A stretch of 20,000 nucleotides of DNA from Asterionella formosa. Its lineage: Eukaryota. Of this stretch, positions 1,890 to 18,070 are shown one piece after another; the first letter of the stretch is position 1; every line of letters begins with the position of its first letter. The translations under genes were made by a program, and so were the position numbers. The notes under the pieces are model-generated. The model saw nothing but the letters and a program-made list of their open reading frames with translations. It searched no databases and was not told the origin of the DNA. The stretch covers positions 50,345-70,344 of the forward strand of contig NKIB01012799.1 of assembly GCA_002256025.1 (NCBI GenBank), read 5' to 3'.

Positions 1890-2106
1890 ATGTAAAATAA
1901 ATAAATGATAATCCATTTTATTGCTCATTTGTACTTGATCACTCATTCTAGGCAAGTAGTCGTTGTGTTTACTGCCAACAAGACCTGTGCTTCCCTAGAA
2001 GTGGCCACCTTAGCCGAAGCATTAGGGGAAACGCCAACACATAGGAAGGCAGCATGCGCTGCTTCGGGGTGCATCCACTATTTCCTGCACACTTGACAAG
2101 ACCATG
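1890..2106 (-). mobile_element. SINE-like element copy A, 5'-truncated (body and 3' tail only, no tRNA head)
   Basis: Matches the reverse complement of 12207-12440 in blocks: CTGCCAACAAGACCTGTGCTTCCC (identical), CTTAGCCGaAGcaTTAGGGGAAAC, CCACTATTTCcTGCACAC..GaCAAGACC and GCtCATTtGTACT. The segment equivalent to ~12307-12358 is shorter here. Boundaries approximate. Confidence 0.8.
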
Positions 2107-2241
2107 ACCCACACAAAGTATGTGTATTATTATTACTATGTATGAAGGTGGAAGAAAAAATTTATAAAATCAATCACAGAATTTGGGATGAAGTTGGTAT
2201 ACAGTTTGCGATTCGACTGGTGGCTTTCACCACACCATGAT

Positions 2242-3422: not shown

Positions 3423-4966
3423 CTAGCCACCATATCGGAAGTGAAATCTTTGTCCTCCGCCATGTTGAAACTGTTGGTTGAAAAATTGATGGGCGTTCTG
3501 ATGGTGTGCACCACCTCCTTGATTCTCAAATACTGGTTCCCCTCGATCATATTTGGCGCGAAGTTCCTTGTCTGACAAAACCTCATAGGCTTCACTAACA
3601 TCTTGAAACTTCTTCTCAGCTTCGTCCTTGCCTTCGCCAAGGTTCTTGTCAGGATGCCACTTGAGAGCCATTTCACGGTATGCTTTTTTTATTTCTTTCG
3701 CGTCAGCGTTTCGTTGGAGGCCAAGAATTTTATAGTAATTCTTCTCTTTTGACTGCTTCAATGCCACTTCAGCTTCTCGGATCTTTTGCTGGGCTGCTTG
3801 CTTTCCTTCTTGAGGCTGGAATTGAAGTTTACGAGAGTTAGTGACAGGGAGAGGGTTTGCAAAAGTTGAGAAAAGTGAGAAGTACCTTTCATGTGCCATT
3901 GTTTACTTTGATAAAGAATGGTACGTACCGAAATTTCTTCAGCCCTTCTGAAGGAGCGTATGGCATCCTCGAAGTGTTCAGCCTCCACTTGTGCCTCTCC
4001 CAAAGCAAACAAACCCTCCACGCTCTCCAGGTTTTCGATGTGTTTCTCGGCTTCTTCAATAGCCTTGGCGTGCTGGCCTAATTTAGTATGCGCTTTGACA
4101 ATCTTGAGCAGCGTTGGTCGAAAGAAAGCAATATGAGTGCCATCAATATTTATAGCCTGCCACCAATTCCCAATAGCCTCTTCGTACTTGCCAGCATCAA
4201 AGGCGGCGTCTCCTTTTTTGTTTTTCTTTTCTATCCCTTTGATGAACTTGTGACCAGCTTTGCAACCCTTGTGCTCAGGGTCCAACTTCAAACCTTCTCT
4301 GTAGTGGTTGATTGCAGTTGGATGATCGCCTAGTTTCATGTATGCATCACCTCTTAGCTCGTAAGCTTCGATGTGGTTCGCGTGTGCCTTCAATACGCGA
4401 CCTAGGTCACCAATGGTACCGTAGTAGTCTCCTAGATGAAACATAGCCTCGGCCCTTTGGAATGCAAGACCGGAAGCCTGTTCCACATGCTTCATAGCAG
4501 CATCCAACTGATCCACTGCTAAAGCCCAATCCTTTTCGAACATAGCCTGTTGCGCCGCAGAGATCGAGGCAAAGCAACTAATGACTTCACCTTTAAGATC
4601 CTCCTGGCCTTCGAGCGATGCTATCTCCGCCGATGCTTCTTCGCACTGCCCCAATGACTTCAGTAGCTTGATCTTCTGGATCTTGTAGTCATCCGATTGC
4701 GGCTTCAATTCTGCGCTTTTAGAAATCGACCTGAGGGCATCCACATACTTTCGCATTCTTTGTTGAACCCGAAATAGTTTGTAGTGATTGAGCGCATTCT
4801 CTGGCTCTAGGTCAACAGCAGCTTGGTAATATTGCAGCGCAAGTTCCGGCTGCCCTGACATCATGGCTTCCTCTCCCTGTGAGCGTAGCTTTCCAGCAGA
4901 AGCATCTTGGGCGGCAGCGGAAGCAAGCAAATAAAGGAGCGATACAATTGTCCTGCCAGCCATCAT
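3423..4966 (-). CDS. DNAJC3: DnaJC3/P58IPK-like ER co-chaperone (signal peptide, TPR repeats, C-terminal J domain); join(complement(3929..4966),complement(3423..3815)), ~476 aa
   Basis: N-terminal signal peptide [21 protein letters not shown]. Multiple TPR helices (e.g. [57 protein letters not shown]). J domain NYYKILGL...[17 protein letters not shown]...[14 protein letters not shown]...YDRGE with the HPD motif. The two ORF-track ORFs join in frame across a phase-0 intron. Confidence 0.93.
3816..3928 (-). other. Spliceosomal intron (113 bp) in the DnaJC3-like gene
   Basis: Minus-strand donor GTACGT at 3928, branch point CACTAAC at 3843-3837, acceptor TTCCAG ending at 3816. Splicing gives ...AEEIS|PQEGKQ... 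in frame. Confidence 0.9.
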
Positions 4967-5227
4967 GATGGTCCTTGTATGCGTGAGCTGTCTTGAGACT
5001 ACGAGCAGGAATGCGCTTTATTGTTTCTATGAAGAGGATGCCGTGAGGGCTAACAATACTTCAACGACAATGTTGCAATGTTGCAATGTAGAGGGCCAGT
5101 AAGGCGGCGATGACCAATGATGATTTAAGTCATAAACCGTTCGCAAATTGCCACGACGCAAAACTATATTGTTAAAGCCTAAGATGTATACCGGTATACA
5201 CCACAGCCATCATATCATAGACCGGAA

Positions 5228-5414: not shown

Positions 5415-5481
5415 GGGGGGGGGGGGGGGGGGGGGGGGGTTGTGTGGGGGGGTGGTGGGTGGGGGGGGTGGGGGTGGGGGT

Positions 5482-5543
<62 letters not shown>

Positions 5544-5586
5544 GGGGGGNNNNNNNNNNCCCCGGCCCCCCCCCCCCCCCCCCCCC
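5415..5586. other. Assembly gap (10 N at 5550-5559) flanked by poly-G on the left and poly-C on the right; likely artefact
   Basis: A G homopolymer runs into the gap and a C homopolymer runs out of it, so both strands read poly-G toward the gap. This is the pattern expected from no-signal poly-G read tails. Confidence 0.8.
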
Positions 5587-6297: not shown

Positions 6298-6449
6298 AAG
6301 GAATGACTTAGTTGTTGTGCATGTTGCTTGCCTTTGAACTGAATTTGTGCGGTTCAATTCCCGCAACTTTTTTGAGAAGAAATTGTTGGGTTCGACTCTC
6401 ACACTTCTTAGTACCATCCCACAAGTTCTTGCCTGAATGCAAGAAAATA
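6298..6449 (+). mobile_element. SINE-like element copy B (degenerate tRNA-like head plus part of body; 3' part missing)
   Basis: GAATGACTTAGTTG (A-box-like), CCTTTGAACTGA, B-box-like GGTTCAATTCC 6351-6361, T6 run, second GGTTCGACTCT 6389-6399, then TCTTGCCTG..TGCAAGAAA. Collinear with 12091-12231. Confidence 0.8.
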
Positions 6450-6607: not shown

Positions 6608-6757
6608 AGAGAATGGCTTAGTAGTTTAGCACATTGCTGTTGATCTAAGGTTGTGAGGTTCGATTCCTGCAATTTTTTGAGAAACAATTCGGTTCGACTC
6701 CCACACTCTTTAACTTCCCGCATAGTCTTGCCTGGTGTGCAAGAGATAGTGGGTTCC

Positions 6758-6813
<56 letters not shown>

Positions 6814-6834
6814 GCCTTTCTAGGCGGTTGGAGT
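6608..6834 (+). mobile_element. SINE-like element copy C (tRNA-like head plus body, with internal (AC)27; 3' tail missing)
   Basis: A-box TGGCTTAGTAG 6614-6624, B-box GGTTCGATTCC 6657-6667, T6 6673-6678, second B-box-like GGTTCGACTCC 6691-6701, GTCTTGCCTGGTGTGCAAGAgATAGTGGGTT. Homology resumes after the microsatellite with CCGCCTTtCTAGGCGGTtGGAGT (compare 12262-12284). Confidence 0.88.
6759..6812. repeat. (AC)27 microsatellite
   Basis: Perfect dinucleotide run. Confidence 0.98.
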
Positions 6835-7885: not shown

Positions 7886-7950
7886 TGTAATTTGGAATTA
7901 CCGGTAAGTCCATAAATATATCAAAAGCGTCATAACGAAAGAAAACCAAC

Positions 7951-8688
7951 ATGACAACTGTCGGGCTAGTCCTAACTTCTTTATTGCTACTGTCACTACA
8001 ACCCCTTACATTTTCATCGTCCGATAGTGTCGCGCCACAATTGGCTTTTGTTCGGAAAACGCAAAGCCTCCATAGCGGCAAGCATAACACCAGCTCAACA
8101 GTATCCACAACGCCGCATGGATACAACATTGTCGACGAGAAAGTCGTGTACAGTAAATGGCGAATCTTGCTGCAACGACTGATACAATTACCCAACGGTA
8201 AAGTGGCAGACTTTGATATCGTCAGTCAAAAGGGGGCTGGAGCTGCCATTGTTTTTGTTTGGGATAGCAACACCAAGACCGCTACATTGGTCCGCGAATA
8301 CAACCCTGGACCTCACGAAATACTTTACGGTTTGGCTGCTGGCTTGATTGAGCAAGATAAACACAATGATTCTGATCCTAGAGTTGCAGCTGAATATGAG
8401 TTGAATGAAGAATGCCATTTGGAAGGAGGGACGTGGCATATGCTGACTGACAGACCTATAGCTATGGATAAATATGTGGACTTCAGGGTACATGCCTATC
8501 TGGTCATTGATCCAACGCCTGTGGAATATCCAAGACCATTGGACGATGAGGAAATTATTGAGATTATACGTGGTGTTACACTGGATGAGATAAAGCGAAT
8601 GCTACGAGGAGGAGAAATGAACATGGTTGCAAGTTGGGCTTCCCTGTTGGCATTGGAAAGGTTGAGAGATTTGGGTGAAATAGAGTAA
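7951..8688 (+). CDS. Nudix hydrolase (ADP-ribose/ADP-sugar pyrophosphatase-like) with N-terminal signal peptide, 245 aa
   Basis: Intronless ORF preceded by A/C-rich context (AAAACCAACATG). Hydrophobic N-terminus. Nudix-box-like AAGLIE...VAAEYELNEECHL preceded by LVREYNPG and followed by LDDEEIIEI, as in NudF-type enzymes. Substrate is inferred only. Confidence 0.85.
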   Translation: MTTVGLVLTSLLLLSLQPLTFSSSDSVAPQLAFVRKTQSLHSGKHNTSSTVSTTPHGYNIVDEKVVYSKWRILLQRLIQLPNGKVADFDIVSQKGAGAAIVFVWDSNTKTATLVREYNPGPHEILYGLAAGLIEQDKHNDSDPRVAAEYELNEECHLEGGTWHMLTDRPIAMDKYVDFRVHAYLVIDPTPVEYPRPLDDEEIIEIIRGVTLDEIKRMLRGGEMNMVASWASLLALERLRDLGEIE

Positions 8689-8704: not shown

Positions 8705-10567
8705 TCAGGTCAGCTCTTGAAGGACTTCCTGTAATGCATGCTGTAATAACTCAGGATCTGCGTTACCAAGACTTTCCTTCATTGCTTGGCCAATGAAGAA
8801 TCTCTCCATTTTCGTAACATCCTTGCCACCCTTGCGATACCGCTCCAGATGCGAGTTGTGTTTTGTATCATAAACCACTTGGATGCAAAGATCTTTCAGT
8901 TGTTTGAGGTCAGAGACGACCTTCCAATTGCGCTCCGCTGCAATAATTCGAGGACTCTTACCCGCCACTTCTGTGTACATCACCTCCAGCGTTTTCTTTG
9001 CCATGGTAGTTGACAGCGTTCCATCAATAATTAGGACCATCAATTCACCTAGCTGAATCCCACTTACCAAAGATTCTTGGACGGTAACCTCGATTTCCTC
9101 GTCCACCATTGGCAAATGTCTTTTCACAAGCGCGAACAGGTCATTGCATAGCCAGTTGGCCGTCATCGTTTCAAGCCTGGATGCGGATGGATGGTCACCC
9201 AATGTTCGCCTGGCTTCTTTAATTGCTTCCTCGTACAAGGCAACAGCGGAGGGATCACTTGTGATAACCAACGCCACAGACTCTTGTAAACCATACTCAT
9301 GCATCAACCTCAACGTAGCCTTTTCTGGTAATTCTCGGAGATACGTGTCAAGGAATCCCTTCAGGTCGTGTCCACCCAAGGTATCTTTGTCTAAGGCAAT
9401 CGGTGGCAAATCCGGCTCGGGCATGAAACGATAATCTACAGCACCCTCTTTTGACCGAGTTGTTACGGTCGTGAGTGTACTAGGATCAAACGTTCGGGTT
9501 TCTTTTTTCGTGGGGCAACCTTTCGAGAATGCAATTGCTTGTCTAATGGCCTCGTATTCGGCGGCTTGGGCAACTTGTTTGATGGAATTGAGATTCTTTA
9601 CTTCCACCCGATGGCCTGTACCTGGTGGCAAGTGCTCCCGAAAAGGATTATCAGGGTCAACTTGAATTCCTGTATTTTCCCCCAAGGGTGCAATTGAAAT
9701 GTTGAGATCACATCGAAGCGAGCCCTCTTCCATTTTTCCATTGCATGTTCCTATGTGCCGGACAAGGTTGCGAAAGGTTGCGAGAACTGCAGAAGCGTCG
9801 TTAGCTGACCGAATATCTGGGAGAAATACAATTTCGATCAAAGCAGACCCTGCTCGATTAAAATCGACTATTGATTTTGTTATGAACCTGTCATTCTGTG
9901 TCGAGGAGAAAACGAGGATGAGCGACTATGATGGTTGTCGTACTGTTACATGAATGCGCCGATGCAGGAAACGTACCACTTTCCTTGTCACTGTCGTAGT
10001 CTTCCCAGTATCTTGCTCGAGTTGAATTCGGTCGATGCCGACAGCGATAAACTTTTCGCCGCCACACTGTTCCTTCTTTCCCGGCAGAGCGCGCTTCCTG
10101 CTTTGTAGTCGCCCATTTCGGGCCAAAGGCCAGCGCTGTTGCGTCATTTGATAGCCGAGGGGTTGATCGGCGTACGCATAGTGCTTCCGCTCAAAACGAG
10201 AAATGTGCTGTAGCTCGCAGTTGCAGGCCGCTGCTGTTAGGACAGCAGCTTGTAGGGCGTCGGCCGAAAGGACTGGCAAGACGCCGGGCACCGCCACGTC
10301 CAGGGGATGGACGGCTTGATTGGGGTTGGCGTTGGCAGTTGAGGCTGCCGAAAAGAGCTTGGTTGGTATGTCCAGTTGCGCATGGATTTCCATCCCAATT
10401 ATAGTTTGAAATAAAGGTTCTGCGTGAAAGGAGACTATCCCGGTGTCTAGGTCGACATTCCAGTCAACTGATGAGAGTGATCGAGCGCCGAATTTCTGGC
10501 AACAATTTTCGGTTATGGAAGACCATTTGGCTGATGAAACGAATCGAAACATTTTCATCGACGACAT
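8705..10567 (-). CDS. gatB: Asp/Glu-tRNA(Asn/Gln) amidotransferase subunit B, organellar (probably mitochondrial, PET112-like); join(complement(9977..10567),complement(8705..9895)), ~593 aa
   Basis: GatB motifs in order: IGMEIHAQL..TKLFS, PGVLPVL, FERKHYAYAD, IQLEQDTGK, VDFNRAG..LIEIV, MEEGSLRCDLNISI, VEVKNLNS, KETR, DYRFMPEPDLPP, plus a C-terminal YqeY-like tail (FFIGQAMK..GNADP). The Ser/Arg/Lys-rich N-terminus ending ...GARSLSS resembles a mitochondrial presequence. Confidence 0.95.
9896..9976 (-). other. Spliceosomal intron (81 bp) in gatB
   Basis: Donor GTACGT at 9976; pyrimidine tract and CACAG acceptor ending at 9896; phase 0. Splicing restores ...TTVTRKV|NDRFITKSIVDFNRAG. The intron contains an in-frame TAG (9926-9928). 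Confidence 0.88.
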
Positions 10568-11167
10568 GCAAAGGCGCTGTGATCAAGTGATTTTTGGTCG
10601 ACGCTCTCATCGTTGTCGATGTTCAGCTTGGAGGGAGTAGGCAGGGGAACCATCAAGCTTGACCTCGCGTTTTGCGTTCGGCGGGGCATGTACCGTTCGT
10701 TTTGTGGTCCAAGATACAAATGTACAGTAAGCGTTGATGCGTGTGTGGCCTATTATTAATCTACCGGTACATAACTATTACATACTGGTAATACATGAGT
10801 TTTAATAATAGTTATGATAATTTTTTACTAAATTTACCGCTTTTAGGTGTACGAATGTACCCGTATACTTATATGTATATTGTAGAATCTATAATTTTTA
10901 GCTTAAATGTATTCCGTTGTTGTAAATACCGGTAAGCAAATACAATTGATGTACCGGGTCTCCAGGTGCCAGGGGTACCAGGTTAGCATCACCGTGTATT
11001 TGTTAGGGAGGACCAGGCCCCAGTACCTTATGGTTGATGTGGCTTCGCTTCTGCCTCGTCGTTCGTTGCTTGCTGAGGCGCTATGATGTATGATTCTCAT
11101 GATTATCGTGAGTGACATCATTCCCATTGATTGTACCCAACACATCAAGAAATAACATACAAACACC

Positions 11168-11545
11168 ATGCGTTGCTCACTATTCCTTACTCTCCTTGTT
11201 GCTGTGTCTACCGCAGTTTCTTCAGCCTTTGTTGTAAAGGCTCCGGCTCGTACATCAGTGGTTCGTATGGAAGCTCAGAGGAACAAGTTCGTCGAGATCG
11301 CCACTACAGCAGCTATTGCTTTGTCGGTCTCGCCTCTGGCTGCTCTTGCCGATGAAGATTATGAATATGGAGCAGTCAGCGCCCCCATTGGCCTTGCCTG
11401 GGGTGTTGGCGTCTTGGCAATCTTGACTGCTTTACTTCCCATCGTTCTACGGGGCGGAGAAGAGGCCTTTGAGGAAATGAAGGACCGTGACAGCGATAGC
11501 TGGGGATCCGGAACGTCTGATCCTTTGGGCAAGAAGAAGAGATAA
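11168..11545 (+). CDS. Small nucleus-encoded plastid protein, predicted single-pass thylakoid membrane protein of unknown function (125 aa precursor)
   Basis: Signal peptide ending VSSA|FVVKAP (ASAF-type heterokont plastid motif, Phe at +1), basic transit peptide, second hydrophobic segment ending in A-x-A (SPLAALA|DED), then an acidic stretch, one TM helix (IGLAWGVGVLAILTALLPIVL) and a charged tail. Start context AAACACCATG. Confidence 0.88.
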   Translation: MRCSLFLTLLVAVSTAVSSAFVVKAPARTSVVRMEAQRNKFVEIATTAAIALSVSPLAALADEDYEYGAVSAPIGLAWGVGVLAILTALLPIVLRGGEEAFEEMKDRDSDSWGSGTSDPLGKKKR

Positions 11546-12087
11546 ATGCTGAATTCTCATTCTATCGAAAGAGCCTGACAACCATCGTCCGTTCTTCAAA
11601 CTATAGCAAATGGTGGAATTACTGTACCCCACAATATGGACGACCTTTTTAGTCAACTAGTTGTGGAATGATCTACATAGCAATAAACTACTGCGCACTG
11701 ATTGTAACTTTTTAGTGGCTTCTACAAAGTATTTATAATTGTGGAAGTGTCTCCAACAGTACGCGATTGAAAAGATGGCATCAAACCTGCATTGATTTAG
11801 GTTAGTACACAATCACCTAGTCATTGTTTACTAGTGATCGAATCTTTCCCACGAGCTCATGTATAATGGTATTGAAGAGTTCTGAACAAGAAGTGTATTG
11901 TTGAATATACATATAAATGTCTTAATTAAACTACAAAATGACCTAATTCAAATTCCACAAAAATGTGAACCACAACATCAAGTACATACACGAAAGTCAC
12001 AACAAATGAGGTATTCTCTTGTATTTTGAGCTGTTGCACCCTTTTCGAGATTTTTTTCTCAATGTTTCTCATTAATTTGTACAGAAA

Positions 12088-12448
12088 AGGGAATGGCTTA
12101 GTGGTTAAGCACGTTGCCTTTGATCTGAGGTTGTGAGGTTTGATTCCTTCAATTTTTTTGAGAAGCAATTGATGGGTTCAACTCCCACACTCCTTACCGT
12201 CCCGCACGGTCTTGCCTGGTGTGCAAGAAATAGTGGGTTGCCCCCCTACAAGAAGCTTGTGCCGCCTTCCTAGGCGGTCGGAGTTTCCCCTAACACTGCG
12301 GCTAAGACAATCACCTTTCGCAAAAGGTGGTTGGGGACTCACCTACGCTAACAAAACTTGGGAAGCACAGGTCTTGTTGGCAGGTAGCACAATGAAATAT
12401 TTGCCTTGAAAGAGGGGAGTACGAATGGGCTGTAAAGGATACTAACTT
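12088..12448 (+). mobile_element. Full-length tRNA-derived SINE-like element (copy D, ~361 bp) with 16-bp target-site duplication
   Basis: A-box TGGCTTAGTGG 12094-12104 with D-stem GCTT/AAGC, anticodon-loop-like CTTTGAT, B-box GGTTTGATTCC 12137-12147. Flanked by TTAATTTGTACAGAAA (12072-12087) and TTAATTTTCACAGAAA (12449-12464), 14/16 identical. Three other partial copies lie in the window. Confidence 0.88.
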
Positions 12449-14799
12449 TTAATTTTCACAGAAACTAGAAATAATTATATGATAGAAATTATCAAACTAC
12501 TCACTGCGGACTCAACAATGTCTCTACTTTTTCGTATCTTTCAAACTGATCAAACGCTGGCGAAAACGCATTCCAGTAGCGGCGATTTCAATTTCGTTGT
12601 CAATATCATAGACCATTCAAATGATTTCAACCCCATGGGTTTGGAACAGATGTATTTTTGCTGAAGGCAATACATTCCCGAGGTGGTCTCATGCCTGCGA
12701 GTATACATGTGTTCGAGGCAGGGTGGCGCCAGTAGGTTGACTGTACAAGTGGCGCCCCTGCTGGCGCTGTGAGACGAAGGTCACCCTACAAGTGCCATCC
12801 CAGCCAAGTACACATGTGTACGAGAAGGCATGTAGCCACCGAGAAGGGTATTGCTGAGGCAATTCACAAACTAGCTATCGTTGTGCCATTCGCTTGCCTA
12901 GCTACTGCCCACTCATCGAGTGTAAATGTCAATTTAAAATATATTTCGTATATTTCCTATCTTCACATCGAAATTTGCAATGGGTCCGATATTGCCCATG
13001 ATTAAAATATATTTTTCATATTTCCATTTTGGCATTACAATTTGTAGCGATTGCCCCTCGGTTGTCCAGCCCTGGGATTGCCGAAATTGGCAAGGGGTCT
13101 ACTTAAGGAAACCATTTTATATACTCTAGAGATTTTAATAATTTATATCTAGAATTCACCTCGTTTTTGTTCGTCTCCTGAAAAGTGGACTCCCGTAGTT
13201 CACCTTTCACCATGCCGATCGTCGTCCATCATTACTGGTTTGAAGAAAAATCAGTTCAGTGATGACGCCAGTAGCGATTCGTTGTCTAACTGATGCTGTT
13301 GGTTGTTGGATTGCTTATCTTCTCGAGGGATTCATGTAGTCGCATCGTCCATATTTCCACAGACGAATGATGATATTGATACATCTGATGTTGGCGGCAA
13401 GTTTTTGCTCCGGTCATGCATGTGAGATGCTTATCGGACATTCTACCAGTAGTCATCTAGCCTACATAAGTACATGGTACTTGAAACAACCATGGATGGT
13501 TTAAGCTAAACTTTAATGCTTACTTTAAGCACGTTATGATATTATCTCTGTAGACTCGGTATTATCTTTATGAAACCAAAGAATGTTAAATTGTATCGTT
13601 CACATATTGATTGATTTTACGTACCAAATGCCCGATTTCGTCCTCACAATTAAAATTCTCACTCTATCCTGCCTTCTGTTGCTCAATTTGGGCTTGTTGC
13701 AAAAGGAACTTTCGACTTTCTTATGAACCCATCGTCTGCTGTGTGTTACGCAGTACAACAGTGAAACACTTAATGTGATCGTAGATACAAACTTGTCGAA
13801 GTTCCAATTTGATTGCTTCCGTGGTTTTTTTGATCGCTTCCATCGTTGTTGGTCGTTCTACACTGTCGTTTTGTTTCGATTGTATCTGCTATCTACACAA
13901 GAGCCAATGTATTTATCGATGACTACTCTTTGACGACATATTGTTGTTGATTGTATTTGTTGATGTGTATAGTAGTCATTTACCATGATGTCAATATTGC
14001 CGCCAAGCAATGCTTTTCTTGCACTAACGCACTTTGCTACATTTCTACTATGAGTTCATATCACAAGCTACATAAATACTCAACTAGAGAGAGTCAATAG
14101 TGCTGGTGCAGCGTGGCGATCACGCTTGCTCAGAATGGAATGATCAGGGTTGCTTGTTTGGTGGCCGGAGGAATGACTGTGGCGGAAAAACTGCTACTGG
14201 TGTAAGGCTACTACAGCGATGCGCATGGTTGCAGCAACCAGACCATTTACGCTACATAACGATGCAGGTCTAAATTGGGTTCAGCGTTTTTTCTTCTTCT
14301 TTCAGTCTTCGATTGTGTGGTGATGGAAAGTCAAGCAATGCTGCCTGTGTAAATACTACAATGATTCACAATGCATGCGTCTCCATTGAAACTCCTTTTT
14401 TTACTTCATTTCTAACCCAAAACAATTTTTTCTATTTCTTATTTGATGCAACTTATTACATCGCATTTCATACTTTGGTTGCTCCAAACATCATGTTCAT
14501 TTTTCATTGATGTTGCATGTTGTTACAATCATTCTCGTATGTTTTACGCTTGTTGTACCACCATCTCCATGCATATTACCGTTATTCTGGTTGTCATGCT
14601 AAAAATCGGCAATTTTAATGCCGAAAAATTCGATGTGCCCCATATTGCCCCTAAATAAAAATAACTTAGAGCCTAAAAATTACTTAGAAGTACCCGAATG
14701 GCAAGACGATAGATGGGGCGGGAATTGTTCGTAAATCATCCCAGAAGTGTTGTCTTGGATTCCAGCTGTTGTGATGCAAAGATTTCAACTTTCGCAATT

Positions 14800-15939: not shown

Positions 15940-18070
15940 TCGGCAAGGATGACACACCAATCTCACCATCTCCAATTGATACAAAGACTAGGGACATGGT
16001 TTTCGGGATCTTCAATTGAATGGACAACGAAATTTCATGTGCAAACAACAACCCTATGATCATGGATATATTCTAGGCGCAAGAAAAGATGGAGGACAAT
16101 GCATGGAAATATCTCTACTCCCGCCAGACTAAATTTTGAAGTGAACACTGGTAGAGCCAGAAGAAAGGTCCAGTCACCAACAGAGATTTGCCCATGTGAT
16201 CTACTGACTCATGGGAGGATACAATACCAAAACAAAGTATCCATGGTAGACAACTTCGAAGGTCCAAAAAAACATACCGGGACTTTCGAAATTCTCTTCC
16301 GCATTATCACATGCGATTATTGGAGCATCTACTATGCCTAGCACTTGCAGGGACAGAAATATTGCTTAGGCATTTGAAACTGGGATTAAGAATACATATA
16401 GCCACAGAGGATGGGTCACTGAGGACTGCAGAAGGTCGCAGTTCTTTTGGATGTTGTCTATGTTTATCACGACTCCAGAAAATAACCACCAGGGAAACAA
16501 TGGTGGTGTGCTCAGGACCGGTAGATGGGGACAAGACTGCAAACAGTTCAACGAGGGGCGGAATTATTTGGAATAGCATCAAGTTTGCTCTTTCTCATCT
16601 AATTTCTAAAATTTCATGACATAGAGACAACCTCAAGTGAGACTACATGGAGCGATAGTGCTGCCTCTTTAGCGACACTCCACTTTTTATCCTGGACAAG
16701 ACCTCCGGCAAACTCTGATATAGTATCCTCAATATCAGAGATGATTAGAATGTTACCTATATCGGTTCGAATCAAGTGGATTAAAGAACATCAGCAGGAA
16801 GACACTAAAAAAATTCATTTATCATATGAAGAAGCCCAAATGAATGTGAAGGCAGATGCCTGGGCAACACAGTTTTTGCAAACATACAACAAGGACAGAG
16901 GAGGATGGTGGCCCATTCCACAACTCGGCACATTTCTACGCATGGGGGCGAGTCTGCTGATAGATGGTAAAAGAGTCCATAGTCAAGTGGCGGGGAAAAT
17001 CAGTTCAGTCATAAAACACAAGAGCTACAACGTATATTTCGAGAAAAGATAGGAGTTAACACCTGCAATGATGGAGGATCTGGACTGGGAAAGCTTCGAG
17101 GGAGCATTTAAATCACAGGCACATGGAACGAAAACATGTCTCACCAAATTTATTCATGGATGGCTTCCATGTGATAAACGCAGAAAACTGATAAATGATG
17201 GAAATGATGAATGCCCCCATTGTGGTCTTAAAGAGAACAACGAACATATTCTAGTCTGTCGACATCCATGCTCATTTTATAATCAAGGAATCCGGCTCAC
17301 AGCACTAATAAGGGAGGCTAGAATAGTGGCCGTCAAGCATCAAGAGCAACTAGGTGGTTCTAAGATGACGTTAAGGGGTTATCTGAGCATGAAGTGGCAA
17401 CACATGGTAAGTCAAGCCACCAGCCTTCTGGCAGTGCAGACACAGGATCCAGGTAGCAGGTGGGCATGCATGGCAATATCGTAACTTTGGAAGATAACTA
17501 CAGAGGCATGGAAAACGAGGAACGATGAGCTACACAAGGACTGGAACTCAGAAATAGCACAATCGGCAAAAAATGAGAGGATTCGAGTTCTATACAGGGA
17601 ACGGTGAAATCAGTCATCAGGACAGCCACATTTTCAATACAGACCTAGAGATGCTATTGAAATGAAGATTACATAAAATGAGGAGATTCCCAGAGAGAGC
17701 TGATTTCCTAGTAGGGGCGCCATAGACATTTGTGGTGACAGGACAAACAAAACTAAGCACATATTTCATGGCTAAAACCAAAAGGAAGAGAAAAGAAACC
17801 AAGAAAGGCACTTCTACGAGCATACAGAGGGTTCTATTAAAACAAATTAAATTTAGGATCAAGGTCCTTGACCCACATACAGTAAATGAGGATCCATTGG
17901 ACAGGAAAACAAACAATGACAGCACAATTTTGTTTCAGACTCCTCCACACCAAGGGAGTGACCACCACACAATCTTCCACTGCCCAGCTATTTGGGTCAT
18001 GGAGCGCAATGCATATAATCCTGTAGTGAGGCTAGTACTAATGCGCTTTAAAAATTTATTTATATATAAA
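15940..18070 (+). mobile_element. Decayed non-LTR retrotransposon (LINE) 3' part: RNase H, CCHC zinc knuckle, C-terminus and 3' UTR; Ambal-like by domain content
   Basis: RNase H motifs IHIATEDGS (~16392), SSTR/AELFGI (1-nt frameshift ~16557), TTWSDSAASL, IKWIKEHQ, QMNVKADAWA. Then LDWESF, TKFIHGWLP, CPHC-x7-H-x3-C (17212-17259), GYLSMKW, LWKITTEAWKTRNDELH. In-frame stops at 17050, 17482 and 17605. No RT domain seen. Ends in AT-rich TTTATTTATATATA. Clade name is inferred from APE+RNase H content in a diatom. Confidence 0.88.

Follow-up and report, generated by a model that had tools for sequence, protein, structure and literature searches.

SINEBase defines a SINE as an interspersed, non-tandem element shorter than 1 kb, with 60% identity or more to a tRNA, 5S or 7SL RNA across a minimum of 60 nt and with an extra body (PMC3531059). 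In stringent SINE/LINE pairs, the LINE protein binds a tail common to both elements and uses target-primed reverse transcription to copy the SINE; tobacco TS/RTE-1_Stu, maize ZmSINE2/LINE1-1_ZM and Chlamydomonas SINEX/RandI are examples from a 2013 review of 58 pairs, whose accessible text makes no mention of diatom, Ambal, Thalassiosira, stramenopile or heterokont (PMC3747384). T-rich ends go with target-site duplications (TSDs) that start with T (PMC6007223). Unicellular eukaryotes were for a long time believed to lack SINEs, and diatom SINEs are mainly software labels, SINE repeat classes being reported for C. cryptica and P. tricornutum (PMC7466962). In the accessible parts of two further sources, SINEs and LINE/Ambal are listed for Pleurosigma pacificum (PMC12803021), and a whole-word search on diatom SINEs gives no match (PMC8147415). 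The Ambal clade is named in PMC4455052 and PMC5753468 and listed as protist-only in PMC4438587. In the main text of open-access articles we found neither a described diatom SINE family nor an Ambal LINE with a SINE as its partner. A SINE of Thalassiosira may be present in Repbase.

Here we analysed a window, a 20,000-nucleotide stretch of Asterionella formosa DNA, in which the original prediction had read four homologous segments as a tRNA-derived SINE family. Our results support that interpretation: each kind of observation that the prediction listed as refuting it was looked for, and none was obtained. They also add what was missing from it: a LINE-like tail, a second B box, an internal T run and the probable tRNA source of the head.

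Copies, boundaries and target sites of the family

All four segments were recovered with a profile built from 30 genomic copies (E 3.5e-135 to 3.5e-29; Table 1). The copy said to be intact is full-length and is flanked by the direct repeat described; its first B box, however, differs from that of most copies by a C-to-T change at 12141. The minus-strand copy is 5'-truncated as described, having lost the first ~116 consensus bases, and the copy at 6608–6834 contains an (AC)27 tract at 6759–6812. No convincing TSD was found at the copies starting at 6298 and 6608 or at the minus-strand copy (best 10/11 bases, weak).

Window DNA was partly present in 20 of the 24 listed runs, which come from 14 studies and mostly from fresh water; nine runs contain at least half of its words. 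Contigs of two studies other than the one with the most of the window cross the insertion junctions of the full-length copy, X2 spanning the 5' junction and X3 the 3' junction, so this insertion is not an assembly artefact. Loose contig ends heap up at 12088 in two DNA runs, marking a sharp 5' boundary. A search of four runs for an empty-site allele found none among the 15 of 92 joints shown. Upstream of the SINE lies a small gene with a plastid-type leader (11156–11545), and one RNA-library contig runs from this gene into the SINE head with no differences (11545–12140); it could be 3' UTR read-through or DNA. Elsewhere in the window, positions 12658–14727 contain a second high-copy repeat, of ~2.07 kb, that is 82–89% identical to many copies (811 first-look candidates). 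It has consistent ends and short repeats in its interior but lacks any ORF of 100 aa, and it is probably a non-autonomous DNA element. Long poly-G/poly-C runs around an N gap at 5415–5586 are probably a sequencing or assembly artefact. The NUDIX gene of the window has diatoms as its best named relatives, as expected for a diatom host.

Table 1. Coordinates of repeats, their parts and genes in the window.
Feature	Position	Strand	Basis or remarks
Older, 5'-truncated SINE copy with internal deletion	1907–2107	-	~78% identical; consensus 117–359, E 3.5e-29
TPR plus DnaJ protein gene	3423–5017	-	Ordinary host gene
Older, 3'-truncated SINE copy	6298–6449	+	81% identical; profile 6300–6446, consensus 3–143, E 8.5e-31
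3'-truncated SINE copy with (AC)27 expansion	6608–6834	+	Profile 6609–6834, consensus 2–197, E 6e-44
NUDIX hydrolase gene	7936–8688	+	Best named relatives Synedropsis cf. recta, Leptocylindrus, Chaetoceros, Cylindrotheca
GatB gene	8705–10582	-	Ordinary host gene
5' TSD copy, 16 bp	12072–12087	+	14/16 identical to 12449–12464
Full-length SINE	12088–12448	+	96.1% identical to consensus; profile 12088–12449, consensus 1–362, E 3.5e-135
A box	12094–12104	+	Sequence; alignment to the genome's tRNA genes; consensus 7–17
First B box, C-to-T at 12141 in this copy	12137–12147	+	Consensus 50–60
Internal T7 run, potential Pol III terminator	12153–12159	+	At tRNA-Ala 3' acceptor-strand position; consensus 66–72
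Second B box / duplicated T-arm	12175–12185	+	Consensus 88–98; self-alignment of 44–70 with 82–108
LINE-like 3' tail, predicted stem-loop, then short T run overlapping TSD start	12364–12448	+	Alignment to LINE ends
3' TSD copy	12449–12464	+	Pairs with 12072–12087
Decayed 3' part of RNase H / CCHC LINE, candidate partner group	15970–18065	+	tblastn to P0001 residues 1362–2073, E down to 3e-63
3' terminus of window LINE, homologous to SINE tail	17979–18065	+	Tail alignments

The high copy number suspected from the window was evident throughout the assembly (68.4 Mb, 15,436 contigs). One 30-mer from the body matched 314 places with at most three mismatches (156 forward, 158 reverse; control 0), which puts the family at 314 copies or more, and a terminal 20-mer matched 79 places with at most one mismatch (control 0). 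A DNA search with 12088–12448 returned 41 matches from 40 scored out of 761 first-look candidates; the 30 taken as loci cover 344–361 of the 361 bases, at 89.5–93.6% identity once the self match is set aside. Against the 363-bp family consensus, 45 full copies were 88.0–97.2% identical, in a sample biased to close copies. Copies sit on many contigs, and their flanks are unrelated from locus to locus. Summed contig depth over the SINE relative to its flank was roughly 700–1900x in two DNA runs; although such depth is not a copy number, the excess suggests about a thousand genomic copies. Two locus pairs (L009/L022 and L010/L030) each resemble one insertion assembled twice. Two other loci, L012 and L034, each carry two SINE copies in tandem, and at L012 one target sequence occurs three times (before, between and after the copies), which suggests either a local duplication or more than one insertion at the same site.

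In the 30-locus alignment, base conservation falls to background at both ends; homology thus stops sharply instead of extending beyond the boundaries first drawn. The two consensus ends, anticipated to be free of terminal inverted repeats, are not inverted repeats of each other. The ~290 conserved bases that follow the head make the element more than an RNA pseudogene. At the 3' end, copies mostly terminate in 2–6 T, which merge into the start of the TSD. Of ~66 segments reaching this end, 20 begin no earlier than position 15, among them a few split copies that are not truncations.

TSDs were also found at other copies. Among 41 distinct full copies (loci L001–L060), 30 had a TSD score of at least 8, against 2 of 404 mismatched flank pairs. 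Their lengths vary from 9 to 20 bp, 15 and 16 being the commonest (seven copies each), and the first base is T in 28 of 30 as printed. The features of target-primed reverse transcription are therefore all present: variable TSDs, a fixed 3' end and 5' truncation.

The tRNA-like head, second B box and internal T run

The A and B boxes noted in the three plus-strand copies were confirmed in each, and across the family they show 80–99% conservation per column. The starts cluster: about 46 of 66 segments begin no more than five bases away from a single position, which precedes the A box by six bases. ARAGORN called no tRNA in the window. With Rfam, neither the window (E ≤ 5) nor a 96%-identical copy matched a tRNA. 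This is in line with the low or pseudogene score foreseen for a tRNA caller and fits an unpaired cloverleaf.

A TTG anticodon-like loop had been pointed out in the head; it proved not to be good evidence for tRNA-Gln. The eight best tRNAs of the genome are 61–67% identical to the head over 72–77 columns, and four of them are Ala types, in a comparison set of 63 tRNAs scored out of 3876 candidates, with nuclear tRNA-Gln not among them. The best were an organellar-type tRNA-Ala(UGC) (50/75, 67%), tRNA-Arg(CCU) (49/75) and nuclear tRNA-Ala(AGC) (47/74, 64%); since the mean for shuffled heads is 57% and their maximum 62%, the margin is narrow. On this comparison, the source of the head is probably tRNA-Ala, which fits better than tRNA-Gln, a less likely but possible source. 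The family thus has the three properties in the SINEBase definition, that of tRNA identity narrowly, and we regard its assignment as a SINE as close to certain.

A second SINE family has tRNA-Ala-like heads (L173, minus, ~2497–2573; L133, 4189–4262; L201), a shortened anticodon arm and a different body. L173 and L133 were head-only matches, with the first ~24 bases in common. At exactly the position of the T run of the 363-bp family, this second family keeps the acceptor strand of tRNA-Ala(AGC), in an alignment of which one wrongly oriented row (L146) was disregarded. From this we infer a tRNA-Ala origin of the head and, for the T7, an origin by C-to-T changes in the tRNA-Ala acceptor strand.

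In 53 heads, the run was T7 in 23, T6 in 14, T5 in 3 and shorter in 13, so that 40 have at least five T and 37 have six or seven. Downstream of the nuclear tRNAs, a T run lies no more than 40 bases away in 33 of 34 rows (T4 in 17, T5 in 7, T6 in 8 and T8 in 1), and the T6–7 run of the SINE exceeds the first T run after 32 of these 33 genes. As the run is longer than nearly all native terminator runs, many Pol III transcripts would be expected to end before they reach the tail. Full-length copies carrying T7 nevertheless predominate despite this terminator-like run. In other eukaryotes, termination at T runs can be leaky, and leakage at the internal T7 would be the simplest reading of the full-length copies.

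The LINE-like tail and its candidate partner

The body had been described as unrelated to the head. This holds in that ~290 bases contain no tRNA, but the last ~85 bases are LINE-like. When the last 88 bases of the SINE were compared with 38 LINE-end loci, found by a LINE-end profile with SINE copies masked, their best match lay at the LINE 3' terminus in 30 (0.8 expected), whereas five other SINE segments gave 1, 3, 0, 0 and 2 of 38. Because the 38 LINE loci are related, 30/38 amounts to one homology seen many times. The last ~75 bases of the window LINE align to SINE positions 277–350 with a score of 47, against a mean of 23 and maxima of 30–34 for shuffles of other test sequences. An alignment of 24 tails (9 SINE, 15 LINE-type) has a single one-base gap, with 27–41 of 51 columns in common (mean 35.7), yet a motif that favours likeness served to choose the rows, and SINE–LINE identity is only ~70%.

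A single degenerate pattern retrieved 68 ends, some of SINE and some of LINE kind (control 0), and in SINE copies with an older-looking tail the loop sequence is identical to that of one LINE subgroup. The LINE-end profile reported 23 of 31 real sequences and 1 of 200 shuffles; against single SINE copies it was weak (best 8.2 bits, E 0.04), so the positional test carries the weight. In the predicted tail stem-loop, 86.5% of cells pair, against 20–41% in slid controls; its covariation score was reached by 111 of 500 shuffles and so lends the stem-loop no support. Joint RNAalifold of SINE and LINE tails gave no pairs, while rows folded apart gave the same outer and inner helices. Judged from these alignments, the tail is homologous to the 3' terminus of an RNase H LINE group.

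This candidate partner group was found through the zinc-finger remnant in the window, which has 103 genome matches; among the loci read, PF00078 missed its reverse transcriptase (RT). A near-complete but broken LINE of ~8 kb (L220) has, in order, an ORF1-like frame and endonuclease, RT and CCHC-finger pieces, together with an RNase H region, and matches the 2073-aa protein P0001 over residues 85–1998. Its N-terminal frame aligns to relatives whose profile shows APE-type motifs. Domain matches of the partner LINE were RVT_1 (E 5e-4 and 9e-6) and RNase_H (E 1e-3), all under Pfam's cut-offs, and its relatives carry Exo_endo_phos, RNase_H and zf-RVT. The L220 RT has 432 relatives of 750–2140 aa; the six with a named organism among the 120 listed are all Fragilaria crotonensis. 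P0001 gave no match to solved structures. Ambal elements are long diatom LINEs with RNase H, defined by an APE endonuclease, RT, RNase H and a CCHC finger in a long ORF2. The candidate partner shows the same architecture, with Pfam scores under the cut-offs, and may belong to this clade.

No intact tail-sharing LINE was present among the copies read, all of which are broken by stops or frameshifts, and the SINE–LINE pair may no longer be active. TSDs for LINE ends, searched within 1.5 kb, were found in 1 of 26 cases, an uninformative result because most LINE 5' ends lie beyond that distance. A ~940-bp non-coding family ends in the last ~250 bases of the LINE and made up 6 of the 20 regions fetched at ends with the tail pattern. 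Its members (L262, L263, L264, L266, L267 and L268) have a fixed 5' end, and five of the six copies have TSDs of 16–20 bp, T-starting in four of the five. This family is a non-autonomous LINE derivative with the same tail.

Two other LINE groups were considered as partner and rejected. One is a young GC-rich LINE with an open endonuclease–RT–zinc-finger frame, seen on many short collapsed contigs (L061–L074, L120–L127, L136); it ends in poly(A), and its tail score is 21 against a shuffle mean of 23. The other is a second family of RNase H LINEs (L222, L223, L224, L233, L235), whose open frame is long and whose short 3' end of ~110 bases has a separate hairpin; L222, L223 and L233 have no tail match at the end. 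A profile of the N-terminal domain of the partner LINE did not match the other LINE's endonuclease. On the minus strand of L122, a 1058-aa frame resembles a telomerase reverse transcriptase gene, as read from the sequence.

Proposed mechanism, alternatives and known systems

The reading we favour, and consider likely, is that of a SINE of tRNA origin, its source probably being tRNA-Ala, which lives as a parasite of resident RNase H LINEs by means of a common 3' end. Pol III would transcribe the SINE from its internal A and B boxes and would sometimes read through the T6–7 run. The last ~85 bases would mimic the LINE 3' UTR and be bound by the LINE endonuclease/RT protein. This protein would nick a T-starting target, where the U-rich end of the RNA could pair with a few target bases; target-primed reverse transcription and a second nick ~15–16 bp away would then yield the TSD, and incomplete copying the 5'-truncated copies. 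Synthesis by Pol III, read-through of T7, binding of the tail and mobilisation by the LINE group are steps that we infer.

A fuller proposal is tentative, and we lean against its holding in every part. It is that of a SINE–LINE partnership in a stramenopile and for Ambal-type LINEs, neither of which appeared in the literature searched, and in which one 3' hairpin would be exploited by both a tRNA-Ala SINE and the ~940-bp element. The T7, derived from the acceptor strand by C-to-T changes, would act as a brake, so that most products would be ~70-nt tRNA-like RNAs and few would be mobile; the second T-arm and B box may aid the rare read-through.

The element could also be a true SINE that keeps its LINE-like tail as a relic and is now copied, through its U-rich end alone, by another LINE, such as an unseen RTE-like element or the young GC-rich one. 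The commonest young subfamily is indeed the furthest drifted from the LINE tail, all the tail-sharing LINEs read are broken, an intact-looking LINE of another kind is present in the assembly, and a T-rich end with a T-starting TSD is the signature of Au-like SINEs mobilised by RTE (PMC6007223). However, the intact-looking GC-rich LINE has its poly(A) end and no tail similarity, none of the 50 RT loci read, out of 150 listed matches, could be recognised as RTE, the TSDs of 15–16 bp are longer than the 10–12 bp mode of RTE (PMC6007223), and the ~940-bp LINE-tailed family makes similar TSDs. We therefore consider a relic tail unlikely. Slightly less probable again is a short non-autonomous LINE with a tRNA-like leader, whose full-length RNA would come from Pol II read-through or another route while Pol III halts at T7. 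T6–7 runs in 37 of 53 heads, set against native terminators of T4–T6 at 32 of 33 tRNA genes, would suit such a route, as would the RNA-library contig that extends from the upstream gene into the head as far as 12140, although this contig may be DNA. The clustering of starts in ~46 of 66 segments, as Pol III initiation would give, the conservation of the A and B boxes and the leakiness of T-run termination in other eukaryotes argue for Pol III.

That the copies are instead MITEs, Helitrons, fragments of a larger element or tRNA pseudogenes is hardly credible. The head does fall below the ARAGORN and Rfam thresholds, and the RNA folds into long hairpins (z -2.5), but variable TSDs of 9–20 bp, the lack of terminal inverted repeats, equal strands, unrelated flanks and 290 bases of non-tRNA body with a LINE-type end stand against it. 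The sharp ends, the TSDs and the match to the LINE terminus refute this reading. We conclude that mobilisation of the tRNA-derived SINE by the RNase H LINE group is the likely account.

While the tail mechanism itself is already known, the lineage is under-described, and SINE/LINE tail mimicry now reaches the stramenopiles through a well-defined family that has TSDs and a candidate partner. The family also points to an RNA signal recognised by a little-studied LINE group: a ~55-base element found in several LINE subgroups, in the SINE and in a non-autonomous family. The rules by which Pol III terminates in diatoms could be tested simply on the internal T7, and hundreds of insertions could mark populations of a freshwater diatom found in many lake samples.

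As far as the accessible text of the sources allows comparison, the A. formosa family is like the stringent pairs in its tRNA head, body, 50–100-base tail shared with a LINE, predicted hairpin and TSDs (PMC3747384). It differs from them in its partner, a ~2000-aa endonuclease–RT–RNase H–CCHC LINE, in its diatom host, and in a head with two B boxes and an internal T7 (PMC3747384). With plant Au-like SINEs it shares a short terminal T run, T-starting TSDs and a hairpin in the LINE-shared tail; those SINEs pair with RTE LINEs, for which a TSD mode of 10–12 bp is given, whereas here the mode is 15–16 bp and the tail matches a LINE with RNase H (PMC6007223). The SINEs of Cyclotella cryptica and Pleurosigma, compared by description, are given as repeat classes only, with no anatomy, TSDs or partner LINE (PMC7466962, PMC12803021). 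The partner, of ~8 kb with an ORF2 of ~2000 aa and with named relatives in the diatom Fragilaria crotonensis, compares with the clade named Ambal (PMC4455052, PMC5753468), of which its architecture makes it a possible member.
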